DNA of 64,000 nucleotides from a virus (IMGVR_UViG_3300034069_000907:4016-68015), one strand, 5' to 3'. Counted from the first letter of the stretch, positions 2,287 through 22,600 are shown. Program-made: numbers and translations. The notes: generated from the sequence alone by a model not told the origin.

Positions 2287-2296
2287 TCTGGGGCTT

Positions 2297-2338: not shown

Positions 2339-2482
2339 TTGGGGGAGTGCCAGCGAGGAACCGGGTACCGCGCCGTGCGATGGTAACGGAACCGAAGCCG
2401 GGCCGGTTCGAAACGGCCGAACAGTTGGCAGCATTAGCAGATGGGTCGGAATTACGAAACCGATCCGGAAAGATGAGATGGG

Positions 2483-6070: not shown

Positions 6071-6081
6071 GAGCGGCCACC

Positions 6082-7140
6082 ATGGCGCAGAACGACAATC
6101 TCATTTCGGTCGATGAATTCCTGAATAAGCGGAAATCGGCCGTCGACACGAAGGGCCGCCTGCACAAGGGCGTCATCGGGACGGACGAGAAGGGCGCGGC
6201 GCCCATGTCCTTCAACTCGACCGCCGGCACCTGCCGTTTCACCATGTCCGCCGAGGTCGAAGACCGGGATAAGGACATCGTGTACCAGGCGGGCCTGAGC
6301 CTGACCGAGTTCCTCAAGAACCCCGTCGCGCCCATGTCGCACAATAGCCGGGATTTCCCCGTCGGCGGCTGGAAGGACGTAGAGCAAGTGCTCAACGGGC
6401 GCCCGAAGCGCACCGAAGGCACCCTCACCCTGACAGAGGGCGAGCCGAACGCCGATCGCCTCAAGATCCACCTGGCCGCCGGCACGGTGCGCGCGTGCTC
6501 AATCGGATTCATGCCGAAGACGGTGCAGCGCCGGGCCGTCCCGGAGGATGCGGACAGCTACTCCTGGCCGGGCTACGAGATCCTGTCCGCCGAGCTCTAT
6601 GAGTGCTCGCCCTGCCTGATTCCGGCCAACCCCGCGGCCTTGGCGAAGTCGGCAGAGGCCGGCGGCATGCTCCCGACCGAGATCATCTCCGAGGTGCTCG
6701 ACACCTGGACCCTCGTGTCCGGCATGCTGGTGCCGCGGAAAGCCTTCGAGGAAGAGTTCGCCAAGCACGCGCCCGGGAAGTCGTTCAGCTTCCAGGGCAC
6801 GAACTTCCAGGTCAACGAGAAGGGGATCGCCGAGATCGCCAAGCCGGCGCCGGCCCCCGAGCTCTCCCTCATCAAGCGTCTCGCGAAGGTGCTCGGCATC
6901 GGCGACGACGCTTCCAAAGATCCCGCGAGCCTCCAGGAGGCCCTGAAGACCGCGGGTGCTGAAACCGGAACGGATCCCGTTCCTCCCGAAGCTCAGAACC
7001 AAGAACAGACCCCCGAGCAGCTCGCCCGCGCCGAAATGGCAAAGGACATCGCCGCCCTCGAGGAGCTCGAAGCCATCGCGGAAGCAGAGGCCGAGGTGGC
7101 TCTCCTTGGCGACCGCGTGGCGAAGGCCATGGCCGCCTGA
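6082..7140 (+). CDS. prohead maturation protease, HK97 family, with C-terminal extension
   Basis: EDRDKDIV, NPVAPMSH (catalytic His), ACSIGF (catalytic Ser), LYECSPCLIPANPAA. Confidence 0.92.
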   Translation: MAQNDNLISVDEFLNKRKSAVDTKGRLHKGVIGTDEKGAAPMSFNSTAGTCRFTMSAEVEDRDKDIVYQAGLSLTEFLKNPVAPMSHNSRDFPVGGWKDVEQVLNGRPKRTEGTLTLTEGEPNADRLKIHLAAGTVRACSIGFMPKTVQRRAVPEDADSYSWPGYEILSAELYECSPCLIPANPAALAKSAEAGGMLPTEIISEVLDTWTLVSGMLVPRKAFEEEFAKHAPGKSFSFQGTNFQVNEKGIAEIAKPAPAPELSLIKRLAKVLGIGDDASKDPASLQEALKTAGAETGTDPVPPEAQNQEQTPEQLARAEMAKDIAALEELEAIAEAEAEVALLGDRVAKAMAA

Positions 7141-7207
7141 GGCGCGGCACCCCTCAGTTCGAAACCGGGTGTCGCAACCGCGTCCCCGTAGCAGGAGAAA
7201 ACCCGAA

Positions 7208-8647
7208 ATGTTGACCCTTAAGCAGTGGCGCGAGAAGCTGGCGGGCATCCACAAAACCCTCGCCGAGCTCAAGGCAGCGGCGAAGGCGAAGGATGCCTCT
7301 CCCGAGCAGAAGGGCGCCTACAAGACCGCCCTCGATGGCATCGTGGAGTGCGTGAAGCACATCGATGAGCTCGAGGAGGAAGAGCGCATCGAGGGCCTGG
7401 CCGCCAAGGCCGCCGGCACCCCGTCGGGCGGAAAACCCGGCCAGGAAGAGGGCCACGACGTCGGCGACGGTACCGTGTGGGCGGTCCCGGTGAGCGAGGA
7501 GGAGAAGTCCCCGATCTTCATCCCGACCGTCATCATGGCGTCCCACTTCAAGTCTCAGGCGAATGCCAAGAGCGGGACGTTTCAGTCTCCGATCGAGGTC
7601 ATGCGTGAGGAAGGTTACGGCCGCATCGCCGATGACATCCTCAAGATGCAGGCTCGCCGGGCCCACGAGAAGGGTCTCCGGGTCAAGACCAACTCGACCC
7701 TGACGGCCCAGGACGGCGGCATTCTCCTGCCGACGCCCAACAGCGCCTCGATCATCCCGTTCCTGCGGAGCCAGAACACGTTCCTGGACATGGATCCGCA
7801 GCGGATTCCGCTGATCGGCGGCCGGTACAATCAGCCGGTCGGAACGGGTAGCTCGACCGCCGGGTACGTCGGCGAAGGCGCCAAGAAGCCCGTCGGATCG
7901 CCCACGTTCGGCGCGATCTCGATGAGCTCCAAGAAGCTCGCCGGTATCGTCATGGTGACGGAGGAGGCGCTCAAGTGGAGCCTCGCGGACCTGCGGGCCT
8001 ACATCACCAACGATCTGCGCGAGGCCCTCTCGCAGACCATGGACACGGCCCTGTACTTCGGCGCCGGCTCGGCCACCGTCCCGTTCGGTATCCTCCAGCG
8101 GACCGCGGACATCAACACGTTCGATGCCTCCTCGACCGCCGCCGGCTCCACGTACTTCGCGGATCCGACCAAGCCGACGGTCGCCGAGCTCGACCGGATC
8201 GCCACGCTGATGATCCTCGCGATCACCGATCGCAACATCAGCGCCGGTCCGAAGTTCGCGTGGCTGATGAATTACCACCTCCAGCAGTACCTGATGAACG
8301 CTCGCGGTGCGAACGGTCAGAAGATCTACCCGGAGGTGGAGAACGGCACCTGGAAGGGCTTCCGTCTCGTCGTCACCAACGCCATCCCGAACAACGGCGG
8401 CACCAAGACGGACGAGTCGATCCTGGCGCTCATCGATTGGTCGAACGTCATGTTCGGCGTCGATGAGGATGTGACCGTGCGCACCTCCTCGGAGGCCACG
8501 ATCGACCCGGGCACCGGCGTGCTGGTGAGCCTCTTCCAGCAGAACATGCAGGCGATCCTCATGGAGTGCCGCCACGACATCGCCCTCCGCCGGCCGGGAG
8601 CGATCTCGGTCCTGCGTAAGGCTCGTTGGGGCTCCATCGCCGCCTGA
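7208..8647 (+). CDS. major capsid protein, HK97 fold
   Basis: ATG 7208 after GCAGGAG SD; N-terminal coiled-coil delta domain; DGGILLP, YVGEG..KP, KKLAGIV..TEE, PFGIL motifs. Confidence 0.93.
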   Translation: MLTLKQWREKLAGIHKTLAELKAAAKAKDASPEQKGAYKTALDGIVECVKHIDELEEEERIEGLAAKAAGTPSGGKPGQEEGHDVGDGTVWAVPVSEEEKSPIFIPTVIMASHFKSQANAKSGTFQSPIEVMREEGYGRIADDILKMQARRAHEKGLRVKTNSTLTAQDGGILLPTPNSASIIPFLRSQNTFLDMDPQRIPLIGGRYNQPVGTGSSTAGYVGEGAKKPVGSPTFGAISMSSKKLAGIVMVTEEALKWSLADLRAYITNDLREALSQTMDTALYFGAGSATVPFGILQRTADINTFDASSTAAGSTYFADPTKPTVAELDRIATLMILAITDRNISAGPKFAWLMNYHLQQYLMNARGANGQKIYPEVENGTWKGFRLVVTNAIPNNGGTKTDESILALIDWSNVMFGVDEDVTVRTSSEATIDPGTGVLVSLFQQNMQAILMECRHDIALRRPGAISVLRKARWGSIAA

Positions 8648-8650
8648 ACG

Positions 8651-8710
8651 AACTACCGCAGGATAGTCGGTAGTTGAAATTCGACCGGGCGCCGGAAATC
8701 CCTGGCGCCC
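8651..8710 (+). terminator. two hairpins after the capsid gene (possible terminator or attenuator)
   Basis: AACTACCG/CGGTAGTT (8651-8675) and GGGCGCC/GGCGCCC (8687-8710); no strong U-tract. Confidence 0.35.
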
Positions 8711-8737
8711 GGAAACTCAAAATCCGGAAATTCGGAA

Positions 8738-9307
8738 ATGACCGAAACAGTCATCCACGAGCTCGCGTTTTACGAGGCGCTCGCAGCAGACAACCATCGC
8801 GGCCTTGTGCCGATGCTCCTTCTGGAGAACGCGATGCCTTACGTGATCGGCGACATCGCCGGTTTCGTCCCCAAGGATGCCCGCGCCATGCACGGCAAGG
8901 GGCAGGCCAAGCCGGCCGTCGAGCTCGATGGCGAATTCGAGGACTTCCGCGGCATCGGCACCGGTGAGACCGCGCTCGAGCGTCAGACCCTCTCGGCCGC
9001 CGACATCGAGCGCCTCGACGCCCTTGAGGTGTCCCCGACCATCTTCGCCGAGCGCGCGCTCCAGCGCATCGCCCTGGCGAAGAAGATCAAGGGCCTGCCG
9101 CAGCAGCAGGGCGGGATCACCGGCCCGATCGCCGACGACATCATTCGGGCCGAGCTCTCCCGTCGCGGCCAATCCCTCAGCACGGACGATGCCACGCGCG
9201 GCGAGGCGCTCCAGCAGCGCACCGGCGGCGCCGTGACGTCCGACAACGGCACCGGACCGGATCCGGCAGGCGCCGGCGGCCAGCCCCCGCAGCAGGACGC
9301 CTCCTGA
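8738..9307 (+). CDS. hypothetical head-region protein (189 aa)
   Basis: Strong GC3 codon bias; located between capsid and connector genes. Confidence 0.75.
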   Translation: MTETVIHELAFYEALAADNHRGLVPMLLLENAMPYVIGDIAGFVPKDARAMHGKGQAKPAVELDGEFEDFRGIGTGETALERQTLSAADIERLDALEVSPTIFAERALQRIALAKKIKGLPQQQGGITGPIADDIIRAELSRRGQSLSTDDATRGEALQQRTGGAVTSDNGTGPDPAGAGGQPPQQDAS

Positions 9308-9432
9308 TGAAGGAGGCCGAGACGCCTCCGCGCCCGGCGGTCGACAAGGAGCGCCAGCCCAACCCGCCGCAGAAGACGATGACGCGCCAGCCCGACAAGA
9401 TGGTGCGTGGATCGGGATACAAGACCAAGTGA
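9307..9432 (+). CDS. 41-aa protein missing from the ORF track (MKEAETPP...DKMVRGSGYKTK)
   Basis: TGATG coupling at 9305-9309, open frame to TGA 9430-9432, GC3-rich codons. Confidence 0.55.
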   Translation: MKEAETPPRPAVDKERQPNPPQKTMTRQPDKMVRGSGYKTK

Positions 9433-9537
9433 AGGCCCGCGATCGGCCGGCGCCGCTCCGGCTGATCGCTCCCCCATTTCACCTCGCACGACGTCGCAGC
9501 GCCATCGCGCTCCGTCCCTGCGCAGAGGATTTCTACC

Positions 9538-10164
9538 ATGGATTTGACCGTCATTCGCCGCCCCTCGACGGAGGCGATCCTCGCGTTCGTCACGGTGCAG
9601 GACGTGAAGACGTCCGAGCGCATCACGCACAGCCGAGAGGATAGCCTGATCGAGGATGGCATTCTGGCCGCCTACGACTTCCTGGACGGGCCCGACGGCT
9701 GGATGAACGGCTACTTCATTCTCGAGTCGGAGGTGGAGCTTCACGTCGGGTCCATCGGCAACGTGCTAGAAATCTCTGCCCGTCCCATCGTCAACGAGCA
9801 GGCGGTGCTGTTCGAACGCCGTGCGGACGATGGCTCCTATGTGGGCGTGCCGGCAAGCGACTTCACCATGGCCCGCCAGGATGGGTGTGTGGTGCTTGCC
9901 ACGCTGTCCCGCAGTGCCTTCGCCACGCCGACGGGTGGCATCGTGAACCCGCGAGCGTACCGACTCACCTTTCTCGCCGGCCAGGCCGACAAGGAGAAAG
10001 TGCCGGCCAGTATCCGGAAGGCGATTATCCTCCTCGCCTCGCACTATTACACACACCGCGAGGCGGCCTTCGCGGATCCGCGCACCGGCGCCGTGTCCCG
10101 CGAGATCGAGTTCGGCGTCAAAGCGCTCTGCGGGCGCCTACGCTTCCATGTGGATCACTCCTGA
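9538..10164 (+). CDS. head-tail connector (HK97 gp6 / SPP1 gp15-like)
   Basis: VTVQDVK...EDSLIEDGILAA, VPASIRKAIILLASHYYTHREA motifs; gene position. Confidence 0.88.
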   Translation: MDLTVIRRPSTEAILAFVTVQDVKTSERITHSREDSLIEDGILAAYDFLDGPDGWMNGYFILESEVELHVGSIGNVLEISARPIVNEQAVLFERRADDGSYVGVPASDFTMARQDGCVVLATLSRSAFATPTGGIVNPRAYRLTFLAGQADKEKVPASIRKAIILLASHYYTHREAAFADPRTGAVSREIEFGVKALCGRLRFHVDHS

Positions 10165-10514
10165 TGCCGTCAGTTCCCGCCGGCCGCCGCTCGACCTTCG
10201 TGGAGCTCCAGCGCGCAACTGAGACGCGCGATCCCAAGACTAACGCGCGTGTCCGCACTTGGGCGAAAGTTTCGGAGGCCTGGGTCTCATTCCTGCCCAT
10301 GCGCGGCACGGAGGATTACGTCGATGAGGCCCGGATTGGGCAAGTCGTCGTGCGGCTTGAGGGCGACATGTTCGACCTCGCTGAGGCGCGCAATGAAGAT
10401 CGAATCCTCGAGGTTGATACCGGCCGGATAGTGGACATCAAAGCCGTTCTGCCGAGCCCGGATTTTCGCGACAAAATCCGGATTGAAGGTACTCAGGGAG
10501 AGGGGGCGCGGTGA
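10164..10514 (+). CDS. head closure / head-tail adaptor (SPP1 gp16-like)
   Basis: TGATG coupling at 10162-10166; GRR..VELQRATETRD...WA...AW..FLPMRGTE pattern. Confidence 0.82.
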   Translation: MPSVPAGRRSTFVELQRATETRDPKTNARVRTWAKVSEAWVSFLPMRGTEDYVDEARIGQVVVRLEGDMFDLAEARNEDRILEVDTGRIVDIKAVLPSPDFRDKIRIEGTQGEGAR

Positions 10515-10858
10515 TGTCGATAGTGCCGACCGTCGATTTTCATTTCCGTCGTAACTCCAATGAGCCCGCAATTGCATGGGATTTAGAGGCGGAGGATGGA
10601 GCTAAAGCGGATCTATCTGGGTACGAAGTGGAGTTGATTATTGTTTGGCGAGAGCTTCGGATTGTCAAAAACTCGGGCGACAACAACGGCTTGGTAATTG
10701 ACCGCGATACTTCCCGTGTCACCTGGACACCCACTCTGGAAGAGAGCCGGAAGATTCCAGCAGCAAGAAGCTCGGTCTACGAGCTGTACGGAACTTCTTC
10801 CTCAACCCGCATTCCGCTTGTTACCGGATACCTGATCGGATCCGGCGGAATTACCTGA
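10511..10858 (+). CDS. small beta-rich structural adaptor (BppU N-terminal-like)
   Basis: DLSGYEVELII...GLVIDRDTSRVTWTPTLEES...YEL pattern; family is a by-eye guess. Confidence 0.6.
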   Translation: MMSIVPTVDFHFRRNSNEPAIAWDLEAEDGAKADLSGYEVELIIVWRELRIVKNSGDNNGLVIDRDTSRVTWTPTLEESRKIPAARSSVYELYGTSSSTRIPLVTGYLIGSGGIT

Positions 10859-10899
10859 ACTAAACCCTTGAAATCGAAATACCTCACAGGAGATAAGTC

Positions 10900-11295
10900 A
10901 TGGCGGGATTTTCCGATTACGTTGAGAATGCTGTTCTAAATTGGCTTCGGGGTACGGCAATGCCGACTCCTCCTGCCGGGCAGTACGTCGGCCTTTTTTC
11001 AGCAGACCCCACTGATGCAGCCGGCGGCGGAACCGAGGTCACGACCGCCGTGCGTACCGCGGGCCGAGTTGCGGCGACTTTCAGCGCACCGGATGCGAAC
11101 GGCAAGATCGCCAACTCGGCACTGATCGACTTCGGGAATGCAGCCGGTCCCGCGACCGTCTCGCACTTTGCCGTATTCGATGCGGCTACTGGCGGCAACA
11201 AGCTCTGGTCCGGCCCCCTTGCGGCCTCGAAGAGTGTTGCCGCAACCGATCCCGTCGCCTTCGCGGCCGGTGCGCTCAGCCTGACTTCGGATTGA
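10900..11295 (+). CDS. conserved phage structural / fibre-associated protein (131 aa)
   Basis: AGGAGA SD; SDYVENAVLNW...YVGLFSADPTD...HFAVFDAATGGN motif widespread in phage neck and tail modules. Confidence 0.8.
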   Translation: MAGFSDYVENAVLNWLRGTAMPTPPAGQYVGLFSADPTDAAGGGTEVTTAVRTAGRVAATFSAPDANGKIANSALIDFGNAAGPATVSHFAVFDAATGGNKLWSGPLAASKSVAATDPVAFAAGALSLTSD

Positions 11296-11305
11296 GCCTT
11301 CCGCG

Positions 11306-12736
11306 ATGACGATTGCGCAACGTATCACCGTCCGGCTCGGCCCAGACACTCACCGCGTGCGGGTGCCAGGTCTGCACGCCATAGCCCCAGGCGCATTGCT
11401 CGCGGCGGTGATCGCTCTCTCGGATCCTGCGGCGAATCTTACAGTTGGCAAGGCCCTGGCCGCCGACGTGAGCGCCTCCAGCATCGGTCAGGGCGCGCTG
11501 ACGGCCAGCAAGCCTCTGTCGGTCAGTGTTGTTGCGCAGTCGGTCGCGGCGGCATCGCTCTCGATAGGTAAGACCTTCGACAGCGCAGCCTTCGCGACTT
11601 CAAGCGCAACCGGCGTTCTCACGATCCGCCAAGATTTGTTCGGCGCCGGGCCCTCCACCAGCCTCGTTGCTGCCGATCTCATCGTTGGCAAGTCGCTTCA
11701 AGGCGATGTGACAGCGGCTTCCACCGCCGCTGCCGCTCTGACGCTCTCACAGAATCTGGCGGCTAACGTAAACGCGCCAGCCGTCACCACTGCGGTGCTC
11801 ACCGTGGCGCGTAACATGGACGCGACTGCGCTGGCGCAATCCAGCACAAGCGCAACGCTCAACGTATCCCGGGCTTTGGCCGGCGCTGCTACGGCCACCT
11901 CGCTTGCTGCCGCAGCCCTGACAATTACCAAGGGGCTAGCCTCCGATGTGTTTGCCCAGAGCACGACGAGCGCAGTGCTGACGTCTGCCGCCGCTGAGGA
12001 CACCGATGCGGCGGCCTACCTCAACGCGCAGACCACCGCGCCCAGCAGTACAGAACGCTCGCTAGTCAATGCCCTGGTGAAAGGGCTCAAGTCGGACGGC
12101 GATTGGGCCAGCCTCGACAACATCTCGATCTTCGCGGCCGAGACGGTGCAGGCCGCGCGCCTCAACCTCAAGAACCCGGCCAAGGCTTGGTCGGCCATCA
12201 ACCTACCGACGTTCACCGCGAACCGGGGCTACACGGGAGACGGCGCTTCGGCCTATCTGGACCTGGGAGATCTCTGGAATGCGACCGGCAATCAGTTCTC
12301 GCTGAACAGCGCCACCATCGGCGTCTGGTGCAATCTCCAGGGCGGGACCGGCGTGAAGTCCCCGTTCGGCAATCTCGCGAACAACCCTCGCGACACGGTT
12401 CAAGCCCGCGACACGGCTGGGAATGAGACGATCCAGATCAACCAGACGGCTGCCGACACCTTGCAGGCAAGCCCCGGGACACGAACAGGGCACCGCTCGA
12501 TTAGCCGGACAGGGGCGAACGCGGTCTCAGGCTTCTTCAATGGGGCTAAGGTTCTGACCTCCACCACCGTATCAACGAACATCAACACCACAAACGTATC
12601 AGTTCTCCGAAGCGGTACCGGCTATACGGATGACCGTATTGCTTTGCTCTACTGGGGCGCAGGCCTCTCCGACGCTGCCCTGGCGCGCATCCACAATCGC
12701 TTTAGTGCTTACCTCACAGCAAAAGGAGCCGCTTAA
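11306..12736 (+). CDS. fibre-like protein: nine 20-aa repeats plus C-terminal lectin/LamG-like beta domain
   Basis: Exact 20-aa periodicity at 11438-11977; C-terminal domain resembles an internal domain of 13030-16095. Confidence 0.75.
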   Translation: MTIAQRITVRLGPDTHRVRVPGLHAIAPGALLAAVIALSDPAANLTVGKALAADVSASSIGQGALTASKPLSVSVVAQSVAAASLSIGKTFDSAAFATSSATGVLTIRQDLFGAGPSTSLVAADLIVGKSLQGDVTAASTAAAALTLSQNLAANVNAPAVTTAVLTVARNMDATALAQSSTSATLNVSRALAGAATATSLAAAALTITKGLASDVFAQSTTSAVLTSAAAEDTDAAAYLNAQTTAPSSTERSLVNALVKGLKSDGDWASLDNISIFAAETVQAARLNLKNPAKAWSAINLPTFTANRGYTGDGASAYLDLGDLWNATGNQFSLNSATIGVWCNLQGGTGVKSPFGNLANNPRDTVQARDTAGNETIQINQTAADTLQASPGTRTGHRSISRTGANAVSGFFNGAKVLTSTTVSTNINTTNVSVLRSGTGYTDDRIALLYWGAGLSDAALARIHNRFSAYLTAKGAA

Positions 12737-12990
12737 TGTCTGATATTCTCCTGTTCTACATCATGTCCGCGCTACAGGCCGCTCGCTTCCGTGAGCTCAC
12801 CGCGCAGGATGAGAACCGTCTCGATCCCCGCCTAGTGGATGCGGGCCCCCAGGCAGGAAAGTACGTGCTGCCCAAGCGCATCCGCTTCGCGGAAGAATTC
12901 AAAGCCCATTGGGACGCTTTCGATATGCTGACTGAAGTCGCCATCGATCGCGACGTTGCTTGGCCCCCCGCAGCTTCAGAAGAGCAGTAG
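12736..12990 (+). CDS. hypothetical protein (possible fibre chaperone, 84 aa)
   Basis: TAATG coupling, AAGGAG SD; position directly after a fibre gene. Confidence 0.65.
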   Translation: MSDILLFYIMSALQAARFRELTAQDENRLDPRLVDAGPQAGKYVLPKRIRFAEEFKAHWDAFDMLTEVAIDRDVAWPPAASEEQ

Positions 12991-13029
12991 CTCACAGTAA
13001 ATACCGCTCGCTATTTGGGGAGCTGAAAA

Positions 13030-16000
13030 ATGGCAAAAGAGACAAGACTTGTACCCGGTGCTTCCAGGGTTTCGGGCACTCAATATGTGAGGGCCCCCGG
13101 AGATGGCGATCTATGGGTCGAAATCACCGAGTGGCCGATGGCGGGTGATGTGCCTCATCCCACCATGAAGGGCCAGTTCCTGCGACATACGTTGCCCAGC
13201 ATGGCAGGCCCCAATGGGGTCGGCGGCAAGCGGGTGTCGATGGATAACCTTATCGCGTCTATTGTTTCGGCCAGCTCCAAAGCCATGATGATTTTTGGAA
13301 GCCCTGGGGTTGCTTACGCAGGATCAGCCTTCAGCTTTCAGCCGATCATTTTCGGTGGTTCAGGATCCAAATCATTCACCCTGTCCGGAGTGCTTCCGTC
13401 CGGATGGTCGTTTTCCTCATCGACTGGCTTGCTCTCTACTTCTTCAGCAATCGTCGGCATGTTCACCGGGCTCGCCATCACGGCGACCGATGCGGCTGGA
13501 GTATCCGCGACGCTGCCCGTCACGTTGATCGTCGCCGCCACCATCGAGGCGGCCTCGTACTTCAACCGGATGACGACGAAGCCTGCCGCAGGCGTCGTCT
13601 CGGCGCTCGACACCATGATCTCGACGCTCCGCACCAGCACCGCATGGGCGAAGCTCGATAACCTCTACTTCTTGGCGCAGGACACCTATCAGGCGGCCTT
13701 GCTGAACATCCTCGGCGCGCATCCGCTCCGCGTGGCCGGCTCGCCCACGTTCTCGGCCCGCGGTGGCGTAGCAGGCGCGGCAAACGCTTCGCTCACCAAC
13801 GGCGTGGTTCTGAGCGAGGGCACGCTCGCCAATTACTCCCTGAACTCCGGACATGTTGGCGTCTTCGTGGGAGCGGCGTCAGCCTCTACCTCGCCAATCG
13901 CCGGCACCGGCGCGACCTTCACGACCCAGTTGCTGGCGAGGTCGGCAGGCGGGAACGCGGGCGGCAAGATCAACGGCGGCACCACCATGTCTGCCGCCGT
14001 GGGAACCCGGGGGGGGCATACGGTCGCCTCGCGGACGGGGGCCGCCGCAAGCGCTCTGTATCGAAATGGTGGGGCGGCTCTCGCAACGACGACGAGCGCA
14101 CCAACCGCCGTCCCGGTCTCGCCTCTCTACGTGCTGCGCGACGATACCGCCTACGCGACGGACACAGTTGCGGCCTTCCACTCAGGGGCCGGGCTGACGC
14201 AGGCCGAGAACCAAATCGTCTATGACGCCCTGAACACCGCGATCACCGCCATCACTGCTCTCGGCCCCGCGCCAGCGGCAAACGCCAATGACTTCGACGT
14301 GGTCGTTTACGGCGGCACCCTCTCGGGCCTGATGGCTGCACAGCGGGCTGCCAACCGGGGCGCTCGCGTGGCCATCGTGGAGCCGAGTGCCGAGCTTGGT
14401 GGCGTCGGCCATCACGGTCTGACCTACTTCGATCTCGGCCTCCGTGGCTCCTACCTGCTCGCCAACAACGGCACCGATCGGTTCTTCAAGGCGATCAACG
14501 CGGCCTACGGGCAGGCGGCCCCACTGACGGCGGCACAGAAAGCGGAGCCGAAGGTCTACGATCAGGTCTTCGCCACGACGCTCGCGCAGACGCGGGCCAC
14601 CACATTCCTATCCTCGCCGCTGGTGACGACGGCCGACGTTCAGAAGGCCGGGTCCGCCATCACGGGCATCAAGACGGCGAGTGGCTGGATCACGGGCCGG
14701 CAGTTTATCGATTGCTCGTACGAGATGGACTTGGCGGCCCTGGCTGGCGCTCCCTACCAAGTCGGACGTGAGAGCGTGTCGACTTACGGCGAGCCAGCGG
14801 CAGGCTTCTCGGCCAAAAGGGTCGCCAACGGCGGGTTCAACTACGGGGTCGACGGCGTCACGCCGAACAGCGGCTACCCCGTGCGTCCGCGCCCGGCGAC
14901 GGCGGACGGTGCGGGCGACGGCTTGATCCAGCCCTACAGCTTCCGCTTCCCGATCACGACGGCGGCTGACCGCTTGCCCTTCCCGGTCCCGCCGGGCGGT
15001 TACATCGCCTCGAAGATGGATCAGTTCGTCGCCGTCCTGACGTCGAAGAACGTCCAGCAATTCACGAGCGTGATCTATGTCGGCGGCGACACCGCGTTGC
15101 AAAACAACAAGTTCTGCATCAACGGCTCTCAGGCCAACATCATCCCCTCGCTGGAGCTTCCCGGCGTCCAGGCCGGCTACCCGGATGGCACCCCGGCGCA
15201 GCGGCAAGCGGTGATTGATGAGCTTCGAACGTGGACCCTTCACGTCCTCTACTGCCTACAGAACGATCCACGCATCAGCGCTAGCCTGCGCACGAGTGCA
15301 GCGGCCTACGGTCTCTGCAACGACGAGTTCGTGAACAACCCGATCAAGGGCTTCCCGAACCTTCCCTACATCCGCGAGAGCCGGCGCCTGAAGGGCGCCT
15401 ACGTGATGACGCAGCTCGACGTCCTTCGGGCGGACAATGCGAACAACACCAGCGGTGGAGCGCGGAACAACGTCAAGGCCAACCGCATCGGGCAGTGGAA
15501 CTACGCGCTCGACTCCCATGCGATGGAAATTTACCCGGACGGCACGAACAACATCGTCGTCACCGGCAACGTTGACCCGAAGTATTCCGAGGTCGACACC
15601 TACGACGTCCCATTCACGGCGCTGCACACGGATCCTGCTGGCGCTGGTCACGTCGCGAACCTGACTGTGCCGCAGTCCTACTCGGCATCCTCCGTTGCCT
15701 GGATGTCGGGTCGCCTCGAGCCCAACTTCGCTCAGCTAGCAGAAGCCGCAGGCGAAGCGGCGATGATCGCGGCGGAAGACGGCGTCGACATCTCGGCGGT
15801 GTCCTACACCAAGCTGTCTCGTCGCCTCGGTTCACCGGTGAACACGGCGCTCCCGGTAATCACGGACACCGGAGGTGGCACCTATTCTGTCTCTAACGGC
15901 ACCTGGAACTTTAGCCCGACAAAGTATGATTTCCAGTGGAAGCTAAATGGCGCGACGGTCACGACCGGTAACGGCGCTGCGACCTACACGAGAGATCCTG

Positions 16001-16095
16001 CGGACGCAGGAAAAACCCTGACGTGTGCCGTGATTGCGACCAATATCTCCTCGGCAGCGCAGGCGGTGTCCACTGGCCTGATGGTAGCGGCCTGA
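13030..16095 (+). CDS. multidomain protein: Ig-like, lectin/LamG-like, FAD-dependent oxidoreductase (PF12831-like), Ig-like
   Basis: FDVVVYGGTLSGLMAA...VAIVE Rossmann motif; FIDCSYEMDL, VGRE...YGE, YIRESRRLKG, YDVPF, LEP..AQLAEAAGEAA; SGVLPSGWSFSSSTG He_PIG-like; PVIT..GGTYSVSNGTW..PTKYDFQW Ig-like. Confidence 0.88.
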   Translation: MAKETRLVPGASRVSGTQYVRAPGDGDLWVEITEWPMAGDVPHPTMKGQFLRHTLPSMAGPNGVGGKRVSMDNLIASIVSASSKAMMIFGSPGVAYAGSAFSFQPIIFGGSGSKSFTLSGVLPSGWSFSSSTGLLSTSSAIVGMFTGLAITATDAAGVSATLPVTLIVAATIEAASYFNRMTTKPAAGVVSALDTMISTLRTSTAWAKLDNLYFLAQDTYQAALLNILGAHPLRVAGSPTFSARGGVAGAANASLTNGVVLSEGTLANYSLNSGHVGVFVGAASASTSPIAGTGATFTTQLLARSAGGNAGGKINGGTTMSAAVGTRGGHTVASRTGAAASALYRNGGAALATTTSAPTAVPVSPLYVLRDDTAYATDTVAAFHSGAGLTQAENQIVYDALNTAITAITALGPAPAANANDFDVVVYGGTLSGLMAAQRAANRGARVAIVEPSAELGGVGHHGLTYFDLGLRGSYLLANNGTDRFFKAINAAYGQAAPLTAAQKAEPKVYDQVFATTLAQTRATTFLSSPLVTTADVQKAGSAITGIKTASGWITGRQFIDCSYEMDLAALAGAPYQVGRESVSTYGEPAAGFSAKRVANGGFNYGVDGVTPNSGYPVRPRPATADGAGDGLIQPYSFRFPITTAADRLPFPVPPGGYIASKMDQFVAVLTSKNVQQFTSVIYVGGDTALQNNKFCINGSQANIIPSLELPGVQAGYPDGTPAQRQAVIDELRTWTLHVLYCLQNDPRISASLRTSAAAYGLCNDEFVNNPIKGFPNLPYIRESRRLKGAYVMTQLDVLRADNANNTSGGARNNVKANRIGQWNYALDSHAMEIYPDGTNNIVVTGNVDPKYSEVDTYDVPFTALHTDPAGAGHVANLTVPQSYSASSVAWMSGRLEPNFAQLAEAAGEAAMIAAEDGVDISAVSYTKLSRRLGSPVNTALPVITDTGGGTYSVSNGTWNFSPTKYDFQWKLNGATVTTGNGAATYTRDPADAGKTLTCAVIATNISSAAQAVSTGLMVAA

Positions 16096-16175
16096 ATAAA
16101 TTCTACCCATAACATCGATTCGGCTGGGGCTTTGATTAAGGCAACCAGCCAAATCTCAAGACTCTGGAGGCAAAA

Positions 16176-16676
16176 ATGCGAGGAATTCTTGCGTTCGTCT
16201 GCGGTGCTCTGATCGCAGCGGCGACGCCTGCTGCCGGCGATTATATTCCCTACCGAGACAAGGCAGGCGGCGACGTCCAGCCGTTCGTGCTATTCTGCTC
16301 TACCGGCGTCGGCTACGCGGCTGCGGCTTGCGGTGGGCCGACGACGCCCATGTTCGTCCTCTCGATGCCTTTCGTAAGATCCGGCACCGGGGATCCAATC
16401 ATTTTCGAAGGCGTCACCACCACCGCCAAGCAATTCGCCGTCACGAAACCGCCGGACGCCACCTCCTACCGGTTCTTGAATCCGTGCAACGTCGATGTCC
16501 GGATCCGGCGGGTGTCCAGTATGTCGGAGAGCGTGACGCTTCGGACCGGGACGCGGTTCTTCGCCAGGACGGCCGAGACGCTCGGCACGAGCAATCCCAT
16601 GTTCGTCTCGATCATCGCCACAGCAACCCCGACCGGTGATTGCTCCCCTGAGCTCCAGTACGGGAACGGCGGCTGA
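16176..16676 (+). CDS. predicted secreted protein (Sec signal peptide, 4 Cys in mature part)
   Basis: GGAGG SD; MRGILAFVCGALIAAATPAAG-D signal peptide pattern. Confidence 0.75.
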   Translation: MRGILAFVCGALIAAATPAAGDYIPYRDKAGGDVQPFVLFCSTGVGYAAAACGGPTTPMFVLSMPFVRSGTGDPIIFEGVTTTAKQFAVTKPPDATSYRFLNPCNVDVRIRRVSSMSESVTLRTGTRFFARTAETLGTSNPMFVSIIATATPTGDCSPELQYGNGG

Positions 16677-17464
16677 TGCGCGCCCTCATCGCACTTCTCA
16701 TCTCGGCGGCGCTGATCGTCGCTCCTGCGCACGGCTCGCCCCGCGCAGTAAGCCCCATGATGGGCGACGGCGTGCCGCGTGCTGCCGGGCCTGCCGGACC
16801 GCAGGGAGATTCTGGGCCTGCCGGCGACGCGGGGCCGAAAGGAGAGACCGGGCCCGCCGGCGCTCCGGGACAGGCTGGCGCCAAGGGCGACACGGGGCCG
16901 AAGGGCGACGCCGGGGCCACCGGAACCGCCGGCATCAAGGGGGACAAGGGCGATGCAGGTGCGAAGGGTGACACGGGAGCGGCGGGAGCAACTGGCGCTC
17001 GCGGCCCTCAAGGAGATCCGGGGAATCCGGGCGCGAGCGGCCCTCAGGGAGTCGCTGGAGCCGCCGGGGCGCCTGGGAAGGATGGTGCTCAGGGTAGCCC
17101 GGGGGTGGCTGGACAGGTGGGAGCGACGGGAGCTCCAGGTGCTCCAGGCGCGACAGGTGCCGCCGGCCCCGTAGGCCCGGCGGGCCCGAAGGCCTCGCAA
17201 TTCGTCTGCAACGCGACGATCAGCGAGACGATCGCGCTGGCCGTCACTCTGGCCGGGATCCGGGAGCGCGCCGGCGTCACCTGCGCGGGCGTCCTGACCA
17301 CGGACATCCTGGAGATCTACCCGACGACGCTCCCGACTGGCTTCGCCGTGCACCACGCGGTCCCTACGGCCGCCAACATCTTCCGGGCGACGATCAGCGG
17401 GCCCGCGCTGGCGATCGGCGCCTCCTACTCCATCCCGGTCGCGGTCTATTCGGTGAATCGATGA
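16676..17464 (+). CDS. collagen-like protein with signal peptide
   Basis: MRALIALLISAALIVAPAHG-S; 45 uninterrupted Gly-X-Y triplets counted; C-terminal globular domain with 2 Cys. Confidence 0.9.
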   Translation: MRALIALLISAALIVAPAHGSPRAVSPMMGDGVPRAAGPAGPQGDSGPAGDAGPKGETGPAGAPGQAGAKGDTGPKGDAGATGTAGIKGDKGDAGAKGDTGAAGATGARGPQGDPGNPGASGPQGVAGAAGAPGKDGAQGSPGVAGQVGATGAPGAPGATGAAGPVGPAGPKASQFVCNATISETIALAVTLAGIRERAGVTCAGVLTTDILEIYPTTLPTGFAVHHAVPTAANIFRATISGPALAIGASYSIPVAVYSVNR

Positions 17465-17859
17465 GCACGGCAATTGAGGTGACGATCCATCGGCTCCTTG
17501 CGGTCGACGCTGTCACGGCGATCGTCGGCGAGGACATCAATCCGGACACCGCCGGCGCGCCGCTGCCGAGCATCGCTCTGGACGTAGTGACGGATCGGCC
17601 GTGGGAAGGCCTAGCGAAGTCAAGCGGCACGAACCAAGCCCGGGTGACGGTGAAGCTGCGCACGCGGGAAGCCCTGCAACTCAGCGACCTCGGCGAGGCG
17701 GTGATCGCCGGCCTCAGCCGGGTCAAGGCGACGGTGCAGGGGCGGCGGTGCTCCTGGATGCGCGCCGGCGCCGACGTGACCAGGTGGGCCGACGACGCCA
17801 GCATGTGCGAGCGGCTCATGGATTGGACCGTCACGTACACGGACAAGATCGAGGCCTGA
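17461..17859 (+). CDS. tail terminator (DUF3168 / SPP1 gp17-like)
   Basis: HRLLAVDAVTAIVGEDINPDTAG..LPSI, ARVTV pattern; gene position. Confidence 0.8.
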   Translation: MSTAIEVTIHRLLAVDAVTAIVGEDINPDTAGAPLPSIALDVVTDRPWEGLAKSSGTNQARVTVKLRTREALQLSDLGEAVIAGLSRVKATVQGRRCSWMRAGADVTRWADDASMCERLMDWTVTYTDKIEA

Positions 17860-17860
17860 C

Positions 17861-18274
17861 GTGGGCGACTTCAAAGACGTGTCGGCCATGCTGCGCCGGA
17901 TGGCGCGCAACCCGTCGCGGAATCAGCAGCGGGACGCGCGCCGCACCGCGCTCGAGCCCCTAGTGGAGACCGCCAAGGGTATCCTCCAGCAGAACGGCAA
18001 CAAAATCACGGGCGCGTACATCGAGTCCCTCGGCGTTGCCGAGCAGGATCTCCAGACCTCGGCCGCCGGCCCGATCGCGGGCAAGCGCCACTCGAGCCTC
18101 GGCGTGCTCCTGGAGTTCGGCACCGCCCCACACTTCCAGCCGCGTCGCGGTGTCATGCACCCCGGCGCGCAGGCCTTCCCCCACATGCGCCCCGCCTTCG
18201 ACAGCACCAAGGGTGTCGTCGTCGCCACGCTGGGACGCGAGCTCGTCGGCGCGATCTTCAATCGCCCGCGCTGA
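17861..18274 (+). CDS. HK97 gp10-family neck/tail protein
   Basis: LLEFGTAPH and AFPHMRPAFD motifs. Confidence 0.85.
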   Translation: MGDFKDVSAMLRRMARNPSRNQQRDARRTALEPLVETAKGILQQNGNKITGAYIESLGVAEQDLQTSAAGPIAGKRHSSLGVLLEFGTAPHFQPRRGVMHPGAQAFPHMRPAFDSTKGVVVATLGRELVGAIFNRPR

Positions 18275-18346
18275 TTTCGCCTGAAAACGACGCACCCGGC
18301 GTCCTGGTGAAAATTCGAATTCCGGGAAATTGGAAAAGGAAACGAA

Positions 18347-18811
18347 ATGGCAGATCGCGTTGCTATCGCGGGCGGCACTCGCGTGCTTGTCCGCCTCCTC
18401 GGCTCCACCACGGGCCCGATCGGTACCGCAGCCGGCACCGTCCTTCCGGAGGTGGAGTCCCTCGGCGACATCTCGGAGACCAACGCGGAGGTGCAGGCCA
18501 CCCCGTTGAGCTCCAAGAACATCCGGTACATCGCGGGTCTGACGGACGGCGCGCCGATGGAGATCACCATGTTCCTCCTGACGGACGATGCCGTTCAGGA
18601 GGCCGTGCACGCCGCGCAGACGCAGCGCCGCGAGCTCGAGATCATCGTGCAGCCGGACGACACGGCCTCGCAGTACCGGTTCAATTACCAGCCGACGGGC
18701 CACACCCTGCGCCTCGGCGCGGCGGGCGATCCCAAGCGTCGGGTCGTTGCCGGCCGCGTGAACAGCGCGGTCATCCAGGAGCCGAACCTCAACCCCGATT
18801 ACGACGCCTAA
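18347..18811 (+). CDS. major tail tube protein
   Basis: VESLGDISETNAEVQATPLS...YIAGLTDG..MEIT pattern; precedes chaperones and tape measure. Confidence 0.85.
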   Translation: MADRVAIAGGTRVLVRLLGSTTGPIGTAAGTVLPEVESLGDISETNAEVQATPLSSKNIRYIAGLTDGAPMEITMFLLTDDAVQEAVHAAQTQRRELEIIVQPDDTASQYRFNYQPTGHTLRLGAAGDPKRRVVAGRVNSAVIQEPNLNPDYDA

Positions 18812-18820
18812 GCCGCGTCC

Positions 18821-19375
18821 ATGTCGGATTCGTCCCCTCAGAATAAGGTGCCCTTCCCCCTGGCGGGGGAAGGCGCCACCCTCCGGTTCCGAACCATGGA
18901 TATGGTCGTGCTCCGGGAGAAATTCGGCGAGCCCAAGATCGTCAAGGTCACGACCAAAAACGAGCTTGGGTTTGATACCGAAATCGAGGTCTACGAGACC
19001 TTCACCGATCGCCTCGATCAGCTTGTTCGGTTGAATGATCCGGTCGCCATCATCGCTTGCCTGCGGGCCGGCCTGAAGGAAGAGGATGGCGCCAAGCCGT
19101 TTTCCCGCATCAGCCTCGATGATCTTCCCTTCGGGCTGAAGGACGCGGTTCGTCCGATCCAGGATGCGCTTGTGCTCGGCATCACGGGCGAGTCCTTCGC
19201 TGTCCTGGTGCGGAAGCAAGACGCGGCCGCGGCGGAGGCGAAAGAGAAGCAAGCGATGCGGGATCGCGGCATCGCCTTCAATGACGATGAGGATCCCGCG
19301 CCGGACCCTACGAAGACCCTGACGGAGGGGACATCGTCTCCCGCTGCATCAGGGTCGGGTACCGAGCAGGCCTAG
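18821..19375 (+). CDS. tail assembly chaperone (gpG-like)
   Basis: Position between tail tube and tape measure; acidic, helical. Confidence 0.72.
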   Translation: MSDSSPQNKVPFPLAGEGATLRFRTMDMVVLREKFGEPKIVKVTTKNELGFDTEIEVYETFTDRLDQLVRLNDPVAIIACLRAGLKEEDGAKPFSRISLDDLPFGLKDAVRPIQDALVLGITGESFAVLVRKQDAAAAEAKEKQAMRDRGIAFNDDEDPAPDPTKTLTEGTSSPAASGSGTEQA

Positions 19376-19620
19376 TGACGGATGAGATCCTCGCCATGAC
19401 GCCGGGCGAGGTGTTTGCCATCGCGAATGCCCGGATCGGGTACCGCATGGAGCTCCTGAAGCGGAGCGCTCACCTCATCGCCGCCCTGAGCGGGTTCCGG
19501 TCCGTCAAATCCTACGAAGAGACCTTCCCGACTGAGCGCAAGAAGCCGTTGCTCAAGAAGAAGGGCGATCTCGGCAAATTCTTTGCCCGGATCGATCAAC
19601 GAGTGAAGAAGAAGGCCTAA
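19375..19620 (+). CDS. tail assembly chaperone C-terminal part (gpT-like)
   Basis: EILAMTPGEV motif; lies in the -1 frame, open from 19291. Confidence 0.7.
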   Translation: MTDEILAMTPGEVFAIANARIGYRMELLKRSAHLIAALSGFRSVKSYEETFPTERKKPLLKKKGDLGKFFARIDQRVKKKA

Positions 19621-19626
19621 AGCCAA

Positions 19627-22600
19627 ATGGTCGCTGAGGTCGCCTCAATCGAAGTCACCCTCAAGCTCCTCGGGATCGATCGATTCCAGGCGGGCATGCG
19701 GGGCGCAAGCACGGTCTCCGAGCAGACCGGCGCGCGCGTGGCACGATCGATCGAGAACATCGCCTCAGCGACCAACCGCGCCGGTGCCGCGAGCGCAGGC
19801 CTGGGACGCAGCGACCGTGCGCTCCAGCAAGTCGGCTTCTCCGCGCTCCGGGCCGAGACGAGTGTTCTGGCCCTGTCCAAGGCGCTGACGGCCGCCGGCG
19901 TCGCGGTGGGCGGCCTCGCGGGCGGCGTCGCGTTCAACGCCTTCAAGAACTATGCGGACGCGGCCACCACGATTGCCAACAAGCTGGCGGTGGTGATCCC
20001 GATCCAGAGCCAGCGCGCGGAGATTGACGCCAAGATCTTCGACACGGCGCAGCGCACGCGCACGTCCTACGAGTCGACCGCGGCGATCTTCTCCCGCATG
20101 TCCCTGTCCTCGAAGGAGCTCGGCGCCACACAGGCCGACGTGCTCAAGGTGGTGGAGACGACGCAGAAGGCGCTCAAGGCCGGCGGCGCCACGAGTTCTG
20201 AGGCGGCCTCGATCGCGACGCAGTTGACCCAGGCCCTCGGCTCCGGTCGCGGCCTGGCCGGCGATGAGCTCAAGAGCATCGCCGAGAACTCCCCCGTCCT
20301 GCTGCAAGCCATTGCCACGGAATTCGGCGTCACCACGGGCGCGCTGAAGGACATGGGCGCCAATGGCGAGCTCGCCGCCAAGCGCGTGTTCGCGGCCATC
20401 AAGAACGCGGGATCCGAGATCGATCGCGTCTTTAGCGAGACCGCCCCAACGATCGCCGACGGCATCCAGCAGATCGACAACGCGCTGACCCGCTACATAG
20501 GGAACGTGGACAAGAGCCTGGGGGCGACCAAAGCCCTGACGCAGGGGCTCGGCTTCATCGCGAACAACATCGGGAACATCGGCGACGCCACCGGCCTGGT
20601 GGTCGCGGGCCTCGCCGCCTCCCTGGTGGGCCGGGGCGCCACGAAGGCCACCAGGGCCGTGGTCGATCCCTTCAAAGATGCCCGGAACGCCGCGGCCAAG
20701 AACCTCGCCGACGCGCGGGCCCTGTCGGACGCACGGTTCGCGGAGCGCACCAACGCGCTCGGATCCGCCCTGGCCGCCCGGTACCGTGCGCAGCAGGTTG
20801 AGGCCTCCCCGAGCACCGCCCTCGCCGGACCGAAGGCCATCGCGGATCTCGTGGCGGCCGAGAAGCGCGTGGCCGGCCAGCGCGAGTCCCTGCGCAGCGC
20901 AACCGAGAAGCTGTCCGCGGCCGAGAAGGCGCGCAACGATCTCGCCGGCTCGACGGTCTCGGCCTCCAAGGGCGTGATCCAGGCGGAGGAGCGCGCGGCC
21001 ACCGCCATCGCCAACCGCCGCGAGCAGCTTACGAAGGCCCTCACCGGCTACAGCGCGGCGGCGGGCGAGATCGGCGGCGCTCAGGGATCCCTGTCCAAGC
21101 GCGCGTCCGAGCGCCTGTCTGCGGCCGTGGCAGAGCGCGAGGAGCTCGCCCGCAAGCTGGCGGAGGTGGACGCTCGAGCAGCAGCCGCGCAGGCGCAGGC
21201 TGACGGCGCCGTGACGGGGCGCGGGGCGAAGACTGCCGGCCGGGCCGCGCGCGCCGCGGAGTTGAGCACCGAGATCCAGGAGGCCACGGCCTCAAGGAAC
21301 CGTGTCGGCCGCGCGCTCCAGGAAGCGATCCGGATTCAGAACGAGAAGGAGGAGGCTCTCCAGGCCGCCAACACGGCCGCGCGCGAGAAGGCGGCCGCAG
21401 ACACGGACCGCGTGGGTAAGCGCCTGGTGCAGGCCGAATCCGCCCTGGTGTCCGCGCGTGAGGATCTCGCCGCGCGCGCGGCCCGCACCGCATCCGGCGG
21501 CCCCGTGCGCAGCGCCGGCACCATGCTCAAGGCGATCGAGGAGGAGATCCAGGCGCAGGAGCGCGTCGCCACCCTGACGAAGCGGCGCGACACCCTCTCG
21601 GCGTCCTACCTGGATCTCGCCGGCCGGGCCGGGAATGCATCGGGATCCCTGAAGGCGCCCGACGTGAAGGCCCTGAATGAGGCTCGATCCGCCAGGGATT
21701 CGCTTTTCAAGCAACTCGCCACGATCGATGCGCAGATTGCCGCCAAGACGGCCGAGCGCGACCGGGAGACCGCGGCGATCACGCCGTACGGCCGGAAGGT
21801 GCTCGATCGCAACGACGCTGGCGAAGCGCAGAAGAAGGAGGCCACGGCCGCCATCGCCGCCGCCGCGACCGAGCGCGAGGCCATCGCCAAGCGCCTCGCC
21901 GAGACGGAAGCCCGGATTGCGGAGGGCGAGCAGGCCACCACCGCCCGCACGGCTGAGGCGCGCCTGAAGGCGATCGAGGTGACGTCCCAGGCCGGCCAGC
22001 GCCTCCGGGATGTGCAGCAGGCGCTTGTCGCGGATCTCGGCGTGCTCAATCAGCGCCGCGCGGCCGTGATCGCCAGCGAGGTCGACAACGAGGCGGGCCG
22101 CGCCCGGAAGCTCGAGGAGATCGATCGGCAGATTGCCGACAACCGGAAGAACCAAGCCGGCATCAAGACCGCGATCGGCTTCGGAGAACAGGGCGTCTCG
22201 AAGGCTCGGCAGGCCGTGGAGCTCGACGCTGCCGGCCAACGCGAGGCCGCCAAGGCAGCGCAGACCGCCGCGGATGCCGCCGTGGTCGCGTCCCGCAAGG
22301 CCAGCAACGAGGTGGCCGAGTCCGTCGCCAAGGCGCAGCGTGCCGCCACCGCGTCGGCCATCGTGGGCACGGTTGCCAGGAGCTCGATCGGCGCCCTGAG
22401 CGGTCTCGTGGGGCTCCTCGGCGGCCCGTTCGCCGCGGCCCTGACGGCGGCCAGCGTCGGCCTCGCCGGTTACTCCATCATCCAGGCGCGCGCGGCCGCT
22501 GAGGCGGAGAAGCATGCGGATGCCCTCGGCAAGCTGGCGGAGCGCACGGCGGAGCTCAACGCGCTCCGGGAGAAGGGCGGGGCCCGTCCGGAGAATGAGC

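Follow-up and report, generated by a model that had tools for sequence, protein, structure and literature searches.

A composite gene region between the head and tail genes of an uncultivated siphophage holds a candidate bead-on-rope fibre cassette

Between the head-closure and tail-completion genes of an uncultivated virus, of which we analysed a stretch of 64,000 nucleotides (nt) (IMGVR_UViG_3300034069_000907:4016-68015; hereafter the window), lie seven genes (10511-17464) that make up three separate units. The first four form a mobile cassette (10511-12990) that we read as encoding a neck fibre of the bead-on-rope kind; the fifth encodes a 1021-amino-acid (aa) protein with a flavoenzyme domain; and the last two encode a pair of exported proteins that belongs to the phage backbone. 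The division into three units is seen directly when related loci are compared. The interpretation built on it, a neck fibre cassette with an enzyme add-on and an exported backbone pair beside it, is one that we consider probable. An earlier note on this DNA, made from the sequence itself, had taken the seven genes for a single self-contained appendage system of the neck or head, combining cytoplasmic and exported parts.

A composite of three units

The seven open reading frames, all on the + strand, are present where the earlier note had placed them (Table 1). They are tightly packed, with a widest gap of 80 base pairs (bp) at 16096-16175, and several are coupled by the start and stop overlaps that had been described: GTGA at 10511-10514, ATGA at 17461-17464 and a single shared base at 12736 and again at 16676. 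Within the region, promoter and terminator signals did not rise above the expectation from shuffled sequence, in a scan that included no model of alphaproteobacterial promoters.

Comparison with a close relative divides this compact block. L015, a 33-kilobase (kb) metagenomic contig with the same backbone, is colinear with the window by blastn, at 83% nucleotide identity over 2016-10512 and 79% over 16248-24684, and the intervening 5.7 kb of the window has no counterpart in it. Alignment of the junctions places the left edge of this insertion at the stop codon of the head-closure gene and the right edge in the spacer 5' of the ribosome-binding site of the 166-aa gene; it therefore comprises five genes, encoding proteins of 115, 131, 476, 84 and 1021 aa. 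The two signal-peptide genes lie outside the insertion and are present in L015 between the head-closure and tail-completion genes, and we therefore assign them to the backbone. The insertion that the earlier note had proposed is thus real, with five genes in it rather than seven.

The same units come apart in other loci. Homologues of the 115-, 131-, 476- and 84-aa genes are adjacent in six other loci (L004, L005, L006, L007/L008 and L010), one of which, L004, is a prophage in a Methylobacterium flocculans genome; L009 holds the 476-aa gene and the small gene only, at the end of a contig. The exported pair accompanies the cassette in L004 and L005 and is found without it in L015, L016, L017, L018 and L019, whereas L007/L008 and L010 carry the cassette without the pair. 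The 1021-aa gene is absent from L004-L010, the other cassette-bearing loci. Comparative genomics thus yields three independently occurring units in place of one seven-gene system: the exported pair, once counted as part of the fibre, is a backbone component in L015, a close relative without fibre genes, and nothing links it to the fibre; and the enzyme, once taken as integral to the module, is missing from every other cassette-bearing locus seen.

The cassette itself is a mobile, optional four-gene set that moves between backbones. The head genes beside it are of at least two types, HK97 (PF05065) in some loci and lambda E (PF03864) in others, and the order of its genes is permuted in L006-L008. 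Its site also differs: between the capsid and adaptor genes in L004 and L010, between FII/DUF6441 and the terminator in L005-L008, and between head closure and tail completion in the window. In all loci it lies between the head and tail-tube genes, beside adaptor, head-closure or terminator genes. A module both universal and already characterised in this group would, by the earlier note, have refuted its reading, and this is not what we see: among 201 sampled genomes of the family to which the host of L004 belongs, a full-length 476-aa homologue occurred in 1 and a Gp80 homologue (the family of the 131-aa protein) in 8. In L004, a stretch of ~1.8 kb with a lower guanine-plus-cytosine (G+C) content (L004:8100-9900) splits the 131-aa and 476-aa gene homologues and encodes a 243-aa Trypsin_2 (PF13365) protein with no PHROG match, which looks like a foreign gene dropped into the cassette.

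A candidate bead-on-rope fibre

For the first four genes, a neck or head appendage, as the earlier note had suggested for all seven, remains the best reading: they encode an immunoglobulin (Ig)-like collar-type protein, a Gp80 bead, a rope and a small partner. Three solved systems frame this reading. In Bas63, a dodecameric Ig-like collar sits at the interface of adaptor and head-completion proteins, and the rope of the collar runs through whisker dimers, which are homologues of GP4 Fiber-1 (PMC12609058). In GP4, a separate rope protein interlocks with an Ig-like collar and holds five dimers (PMC12609058, PMC13730344). In A1002, a fibre-dock segment that resembles a rope joins each Gp80-fold dimer in an augmented beta-sheet, and the fibre hangs from the nozzle (PMC13730344).

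The bead is identified by direct sequence similarity. The 131-aa protein matches PF23140 ('Podophage GP4 fiber I protein gp80') over the full model with 122 bits, against a cut-off of 27; to the whisker chains of Bas63 and Sf14 its sequence similarity reaches only E 0.13-0.4. The Gp80 family counts 4115 representatives at E <= 0.001. About half of the best 150 relatives have a tandem pair of Gp80 domains in a protein of ~250-280 aa, and because so many of the best matches are fused in this way, a dimer fits as the working unit.

The 476-aa rope has three parts: a conserved N-terminal segment, predicted to form a beta-hairpin and a candidate plug into the collar-type protein; ten 20-aa repeats, candidate docking sites for the beads; and an end domain. 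Identity within the repeat region is 0.302 at a lag of 20 residues and 0.308 at a lag of 40, compared with 0.13 +/- 0.023 in shuffled sequences, of which 0 of 5000 reached either value. In an AlphaFold 2 (AF2) model the repeats appear as alternating short strands. Tandem Repeats Finder detected no DNA-level tandem repeat in the gene, and the repeats are therefore old and maintained at the protein level. The end domain is the best-conserved part of the rope in the alignment. It has no Pfam match and falls below 50 in predicted local distance difference test (pLDDT) in the AF2 model, hence an Atlas model was used for its fold. By template-modelling score (TM), this model matches a ConA-like lectin cluster at 0.89 (PF13385 in 24% of the members) and clusters with Laminin_G_3 in all members at 0.70-0.74, and LamG_3 clusters overall span 0.67-0.89. 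The tip of the rope is thus modelled with a ConA/LamG-like fold, in keeping with the glycan-binding activity that the earlier note had inferred. A search of the rope sequence against the PDB returned nothing meaningful.

Proteins with repeats of ~20 aa also stand beside Gp80 genes in other phages, namely the GP4-like phage Eline, mycobacteriophage Rumpelstiltskin and Psychrobacillus phage PVJ1. The Eline protein, whose gene adjoins the bead gene, has ~10 units of irregular period. Rumpelstiltskin gp24 (L011:8361-10649; 762 aa, annotated 'minor tail protein') carries ~13 20-aa repeats in its C-terminal half, and its gene comes right after that of the Gp80 homologue gp23; Cluster L mycobacteriophages may also build bead-on-rope fibres.

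Prediction of a complex between four beads and rope residues 128-175 is consistent with docking at the repeats. The score was 0.60, against 0.18 for the best of three controls, and the tool grades it as 'weak support'. The mark that it passed is also passed by 58 of 80 solved complexes and by 2 of 110 mismatched pairs; at scores of 0.60 or less lie just 7 of the 80 solved complexes and both of the passing mismatches. The runs agreed in at least 95% of contacts, with a partner pLDDT of at least 68. As a similar complex has already been solved, the pass may reflect likeness to it.

The 115-aa protein is the candidate collar or fibre anchor. Aligned with VIA-align, its AF2 model matches the TP901-1 BppU N-terminal domain (Z 10.9), the Sf14 neck protein (9c39_J; Z 10.0, root-mean-square deviation (rmsd) 2.2 A over 96 residues), residues 60-166 of the Bas63 connector (9mt4_H; Z 9.8), T5 p132 (Z 9.0) and an 80alpha baseplate protein, and among its matches in BFVD are proteins with BppU_N and LtfC/p132/Gp6 domains. 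The BppU, p132, Sf14 and Bas63 matches are all ring-forming fibre anchors. Sequence-profile comparison of the 115-aa family with the PDB found no homology. Its linkage to the rope gene holds in 7 of 7 loci for which the upstream region is available, and the homologues that adjoin the rope gene in L004-L008 and L010 are 36-40% identical to it. Conservation within the cassette is highest in the 84-aa protein (mean column identity 77%), whose start is coupled to the rope gene; it has no Pfam or PHROG match and may be a chaperone or other helper, or a partner of the tip.

The flavoenzyme protein and the exported pair

The 1021-aa protein combines a LamG-like domain, a paralogue of the rope tip, with a PF12831 flavoenzyme domain, in keeping with the redox activity that the earlier note had proposed; Ig-like parts stand on either side of these domains, the N-terminal one behind an unassigned stretch of residues 1-105. 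An intact dinucleotide-binding glycine motif of the GGxxxG type follows a 'DVVVYGG' strand at residues ~423-434. The flavin domain resembles PF12831 clusters in the Atlas (TM 0.83-0.88) made up of Verrucomicrobiota, Planctomycetota and Bacteroidota proteins. Several neighbouring PF12831 clusters are fused to Golvesin/xanthan-lyase-CBD-like (Xly-CBD) or GH130 domains, which points to glycan chemistry. By sequence, no characterised PF12831 relative was found in the PDB, where the matches were confined to the Rossmann motif, and our literature search on PF12831 chemistry found nothing useful. A public gene call begins 36 codons later (at codon 37, giving 985 aa); we favour the ATG at 13030, because a GGGGAG ribosome-binding site lies 7-8 nt upstream of it.

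The pairing of LamG-like and PF12831 domains recurs in an 882-aa Atlas cluster, whose LamG-like domain matches the rope tip at TM 0.90, and in ~850-aa proteins of the Rhizobium phages RHph_Y55 and RHph_I72, which are 26-28% identical over the flavin domain. These two share the LamG-like and PF12831 core with the window protein, which differs in its extra N- and C-terminal Ig-like parts and in standing beside a fibre cassette. Both Rhizobium phage genes (L013:6230-8788 and L014:4729-7314) lie between the portal gene and head-morphogenesis or capsid genes. A flavoenzyme gene in the head gene block is thus a recurrent feature of alphaproteobacterial phages. The gene of the 1021-aa protein came in with the same 5.7-kb insertion as the cassette. 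Its product would most likely be a further virion or late protein, equipped with an enzyme domain and directed at the glycan that the fibre binds; that it is associated with the virion has about even odds.

The last two proteins carry Sec-type signal peptides, as the earlier note had stated. For the 166-aa protein we found 49 homologue clusters, the named ones almost all from Methylobacterium or Methylorubrum; with a few short or differently called exceptions, nearly all have a divergent Sec-type signal peptide (a positive n-region, a hydrophobic core and small residues at -3 and -1) and two or four cysteines in the mature part. Its Atlas model, of moderate quality (predicted TM 0.57), has viral beta-sandwich proteins and folds like those of carbohydrate-binding modules as its neighbours, at modest TM. 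The 262-aa protein has a Gly-X-Y run at about residues 37-175, and its gene is coupled at one end to that of the 166-aa protein and at the other to that for tail completion. A collagen-like homologue directly follows the 166-aa homologue in seven other loci (L004, L005 and L015-L019), and in L004 both homologues likewise have a signal peptide. In L016 (10504-11367), L017 (10501-11154), L019 (8507-9223) and L018 (8525-8839), the collagen-like gene is called as two or three small frames or left uncalled, although it is continuous by tblastn; these split calls are probably a failure of gene calling on a GC-rich Gly-X-Y repeat. One of these phages, L018, also has two anti-CBASS/Thoeris counter-defence families in its head gene block (L018:2332-4669): an Acb1-type domain (PF23474) is fused to the portal protein, and an Acb2/Tad1-hairpin protein (PF24729) comes next.

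Because the stop codon of the pair overlaps the start of the tail-completion gene, the pair is made late at least. We favour an accessory role directed at the cell envelope: the two proteins would be exported by Sec, made with the late operon and act in the envelope, outside the fibre; a role on the virion after lysis has a low probability.

A serious contender, which we put somewhat short of even chances, is that neither the enzyme nor the exported pair has a role in the virion and that both are morons, accessory cargo that could serve, for example, glycan modification late in infection or in the lysogen, receptor masking, superinfection exclusion or a change of the host surface. This would suit the dispensability of both units in relatives; signal peptides and conserved cysteine pairs suggest a periplasmic or surface life, and a promoter could lie in the AT-richer spacer of 80 bp that precedes the 166-aa gene. 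Exported proteins within late regions also have precedents in lambda lom and in receptor blockers of the cor or llp type. The pair, however, keeps its site within head/neck operons across four or more types of backbone, with the stop overlap pointing to late co-transcription. For the enzyme, three features argue for the particle instead: it shares its LamG-like domain with the fibre tip, Ig-like end domains are typical of exposed virion proteins, and the LamG-PF12831 proteins of the Rhizobium phages are likewise encoded among head genes.

Position of the fibre, known relatives and meaning

In the assembly that we propose, the 115-aa protein would form a collar around the connector at the level of the adaptor and head-closure proteins, and the N-terminal hairpin of the rope would plug into it. 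Each Gp80 bead has an open beta-sandwich, which beta-strands contributed by the 20-aa repeats would complete. The beads would be threaded on the rope in dimers, of which we expect five, as in GP4, although ten are possible. The ConA/LamG-like tip would probably bind a surface glycan in a reversible first contact, with the 84-aa protein as a conserved helper or tip partner.

By its bead, the cassette is of the GP4 Fiber-1 and Bas63 collar-whisker kind; it differs from that kind in its occurrence in a temperate siphophage, its three separate proteins with a conserved fourth, the lectin-like end of the rope, and its mobile, optional nature. With GP4 Fiber-1 it shares a PF23140 bead with a direct sequence match (PDB 8JOU), a separate rope whose gene comes right after that of the bead, ~10 repeat units, where GP4 has five dimers made of ten chains of gp80, and an Ig-like third component (the fibre-tail-adaptor of GP4). 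GP4 is a podophage, whereas the window comes from a temperate siphophage with a 245-aa rope end, predicted to be ConA/LamG-like, and a conserved 84-aa fourth gene; the ropes and Ig-like parts have no detectable sequence homology, and the mounting site here is a proposal from gene position. The collar-whisker systems of Bas63 and Sf14 (PDB 9MT4 and 9C39), which are Felixounavirus-type myophages, resemble it in the Ig-like fold of the collar, which aligns at Z 9.8-10.0 with an rmsd of 2.2-2.3 A over 96-98 residues, in a rope that bears whisker dimers of Gp80-like type, and in a collar at the adaptor/head-completion level that matches the gene position here. Their rope is an N-terminal extension of the collar that holds two dimers; the rope of the window has its own gene, is 476 aa long, and combines ten repeats with a lectin-like tip.

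Further comparisons bring in mounting on the tail. The Pseudomonas podophage A1002 and Vibrio phage VP1 have Gp80-fold dimers, a rope-like segment and an Ig-like domain at the rope end (PMC13730344), but in A1002 the nozzle protein, at the tail, includes the rope as one of its domains, and there are two bead proteins and 11 dimers. The TP901-1 BppU N-terminal domain and T5 p132 (an LtfC/p132/Gp6 beta-sandwich) are ring-forming fibre holders of the fold class of the 115-aa protein, but are located at the tail tip and share no sequence similarity with it. The neck fibres of Anabaena phage A-1(L) were considered as a relative and rejected, being trimers of unrelated proteins in which the name 'gp80' is coincidental. 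A literature search found no paper on such a fibre system in a siphophage, which does not prove that none exists.

Several points weigh against our interpretation. The position of the fibre on the virion is taken from gene order and analogy, and flavin binding and virion presence of the 1021-aa protein are predictions. The AF2 model of the whole rope, built on a ten-row alignment, has a mean pLDDT of 45. Profile comparisons gave no homology of the rope family to Eline gp43 or Rumpelstiltskin gp24, nor of the 115-aa family to Eline gp40 or gp41. Bead stoichiometry is ambiguous: the ropes of GP4-like phages have ~21 aa per bead, which together with the 40-aa super-period here favours five dimers, whereas A1002 has ~24 aa per dimer, by which one 20-aa unit could serve a dimer and ten would be possible. 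Antibody domains align with the 115-aa protein at Z 8-9.7, and the tail-tip adaptors BppU and T5 p132 score like neck collars; because the Ig-like fold is generic, a fold match alone cannot fix the position of this protein on the virion. Finally, the Gp80 genes of mycobacteriophages, PVJ1 and Microcystis phage yong2 follow baseplate or minor-tail genes, in the tail-fibre region, and the chain fibre of A1002 sits on the nozzle (PMC13730344).

The last of these points, with BppU, p132 and the 80alpha baseplate among the best folds, favour a mounting of the same fibre on the tail, at its tip or side, the 115-aa protein serving as an anchor like BppU or T5 p132; the capsid vertices are a further site, for which the cassettes between capsid and adaptor genes in L004 and L010 would speak. 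We consider either placement rather unlikely. In all seven loci the cassette lies in the head-connector junction and never after tape-measure or tip genes; the homologous system is borne on an adaptor-level collar in Bas63/Sf14 and GP4; and the window encodes a full, separate set of tip proteins downstream (DUF1833, 1303 aa and 831 aa).

Starting again from a fibre at the neck, one could imagine that its lectin-like tip has been duplicated in a virion-borne flavoenzyme, that the two jointly bind host polysaccharide and cleave it, oxidatively or otherwise, and that the exported pair works on that envelope structure from within or joins particles after lysis. This improbable extension would make the enzyme the first depolymerase of the flavoenzyme kind to be found on a phage particle. 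Least likely of all, and very improbable, is the single appendage of all seven products, cytoplasmic and exported, for which the shared strand, tight packing, coupled starts and stops, the outcome of the promoter and terminator scan and the direct adjacency of pair and cassette in L004 and L005 could be cited, but which founders on the separate occurrence of the units in L015, whose backbone is 83% identical, L016-L019, L007/L008 and L010, and on Sec export, which takes the pair out of the cytoplasm, where tailed-phage virions assemble.

The window comprises most of a 68.7-kb IMG/VR virus record with a G+C content of ~64%, and its + strand carries a siphophage late operon (Table 1). Of the boundary genes, the head-closure gene is 89% identical to its L015 homologue, and the L017 homologue has PF05521; both tail-completion genes are 91% identical to those of L015. 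Neither Pfam nor PHROG has a match for the 189-aa protein encoded 3' of the capsid gene; the protein is kept in L015 (67%) and L017 (35%), and its role may be that of decoration or of a scaffold-like protein. Further downstream follow a probable tube gene with chaperones, a 1766-aa tape measure, DUF1833 and the large tip proteins. Because several genes have homologues almost only in Methylobacterium or Methylorubrum genomes, the host of this temperate siphophage probably belongs to the Methylobacteriaceae. Single-protein pattern scans with the rope and a tail-completion protein found no close relatives in IMG/VR, and in a DNA search against isolated phages the collagen repeats were the sole match.

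Table 1. Positions of the seven genes, their predicted parts and the flanking late genes in the window
Feature	Position (nt)	Strand	Evidence or remark
Large terminase	2787-4634	+	
Portal	4631-6070	+	
Protease	6082-7140	+	
Major capsid protein	6956-8647	+	
189-aa protein	8738-9307	+	directly 3' of capsid gene
Ad1 adaptor	9538-10164	+	phrog_442
Head-closure (Hc1) gene	10164..10514 (start approximate)	+	left boundary; weak match, PF05521 21.3 bits (below cut-off), phrog_25 E 1.7e-3
5.7-kb insertion, five genes (fibre cassette and 1021-aa enzyme)	10513..16247	.	no counterpart in L015 (blastn, junction alignment)
115-aa Ig-like beta-sandwich protein, candidate collar/fibre anchor	10511..10858	+	AF2 model pLDDT 85.8; VIA-align
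131-aa Gp80-family bead (GP4 fiber I)	10900..11295	+	PF23140 E 2.1e-35; PDB 8JOU chain a E 7.6e-14
476-aa rope gene	11306-12736	+	N-terminal segment, ten repeats, end domain
Rope residues 1-31, conserved N-terminal segment, predicted beta-hairpin	11306..11398	+	alignment; strands 4-11 and 14-21 in low-confidence model
Rope residues 32-230, ten 20-aa repeats, 40-aa super-period	11399..11995	+	periodicity statistics; candidate bead-docking sites
Rope residues 231-476, ConA/LamG-like end domain (modelled), ~245 aa	11996..12736	+	Atlas structure matches; phrog_26223
84-aa protein	12736..12990	+	start-coupled to rope gene; immediately 3' of rope in all seven other loci
1021-aa multidomain protein	13030..16095	+	PF12831 E 2.1e-61; LamG-like paralogue of rope tip
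1021-aa protein, residues ~108-168, Ig-like			by motif
1021-aa protein, residues 173-407, LamG-like domain	13546-14250	+	32% identity to rope residues 234-472, E 1e-22
1021-aa protein, residues 423-933, PF12831 FAD_oxidored domain	14296-15828	+	208.9 bits against cut-off 27; model 1-416 of 416
1021-aa protein, residues ~945-1021 (C-terminal), Ig-like			
166-aa exported beta-sandwich protein, backbone gene	16176..16676	+	49 homologue clusters; present in L015
262-aa exported collagen-like protein, ~85-aa C-terminal domain	16676..17464	+	PF01391 E 2.5e-22, three stretches
gp17-like tail-completion gene, 132 aa	17461-17859	+	right boundary; PF11367 E 8e-7
Neck1/tail-completion gene, 137 aa	17861-18274	+	right boundary; phrog_5 E 3.8e-12

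Chain-like fibres have come to light recently and have been solved only in a few podophages and in Felixounavirus-type myophages; this locus would extend the design to temperate siphophages of plant-associated alphaproteobacteria. It also suggests a rule for annotation, by which bead and rope can be recognised wherever a Gp80 gene stands beside one that encodes 20-aa repeats, and the family to which the rule would apply has more than 4000 representatives at 50% identity, most of which bear the labels 'hypothetical' or 'head protein'. Two further leads are the fusion of LamG-like and flavoenzyme domains and the exported pair with its collagen-like member, both of which recur in head operons of phages. 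The presence of the fibre genes in one phage and their absence from another with an 83% identical backbone constitutes a natural experiment on the role of such a fibre in adsorption or host range.

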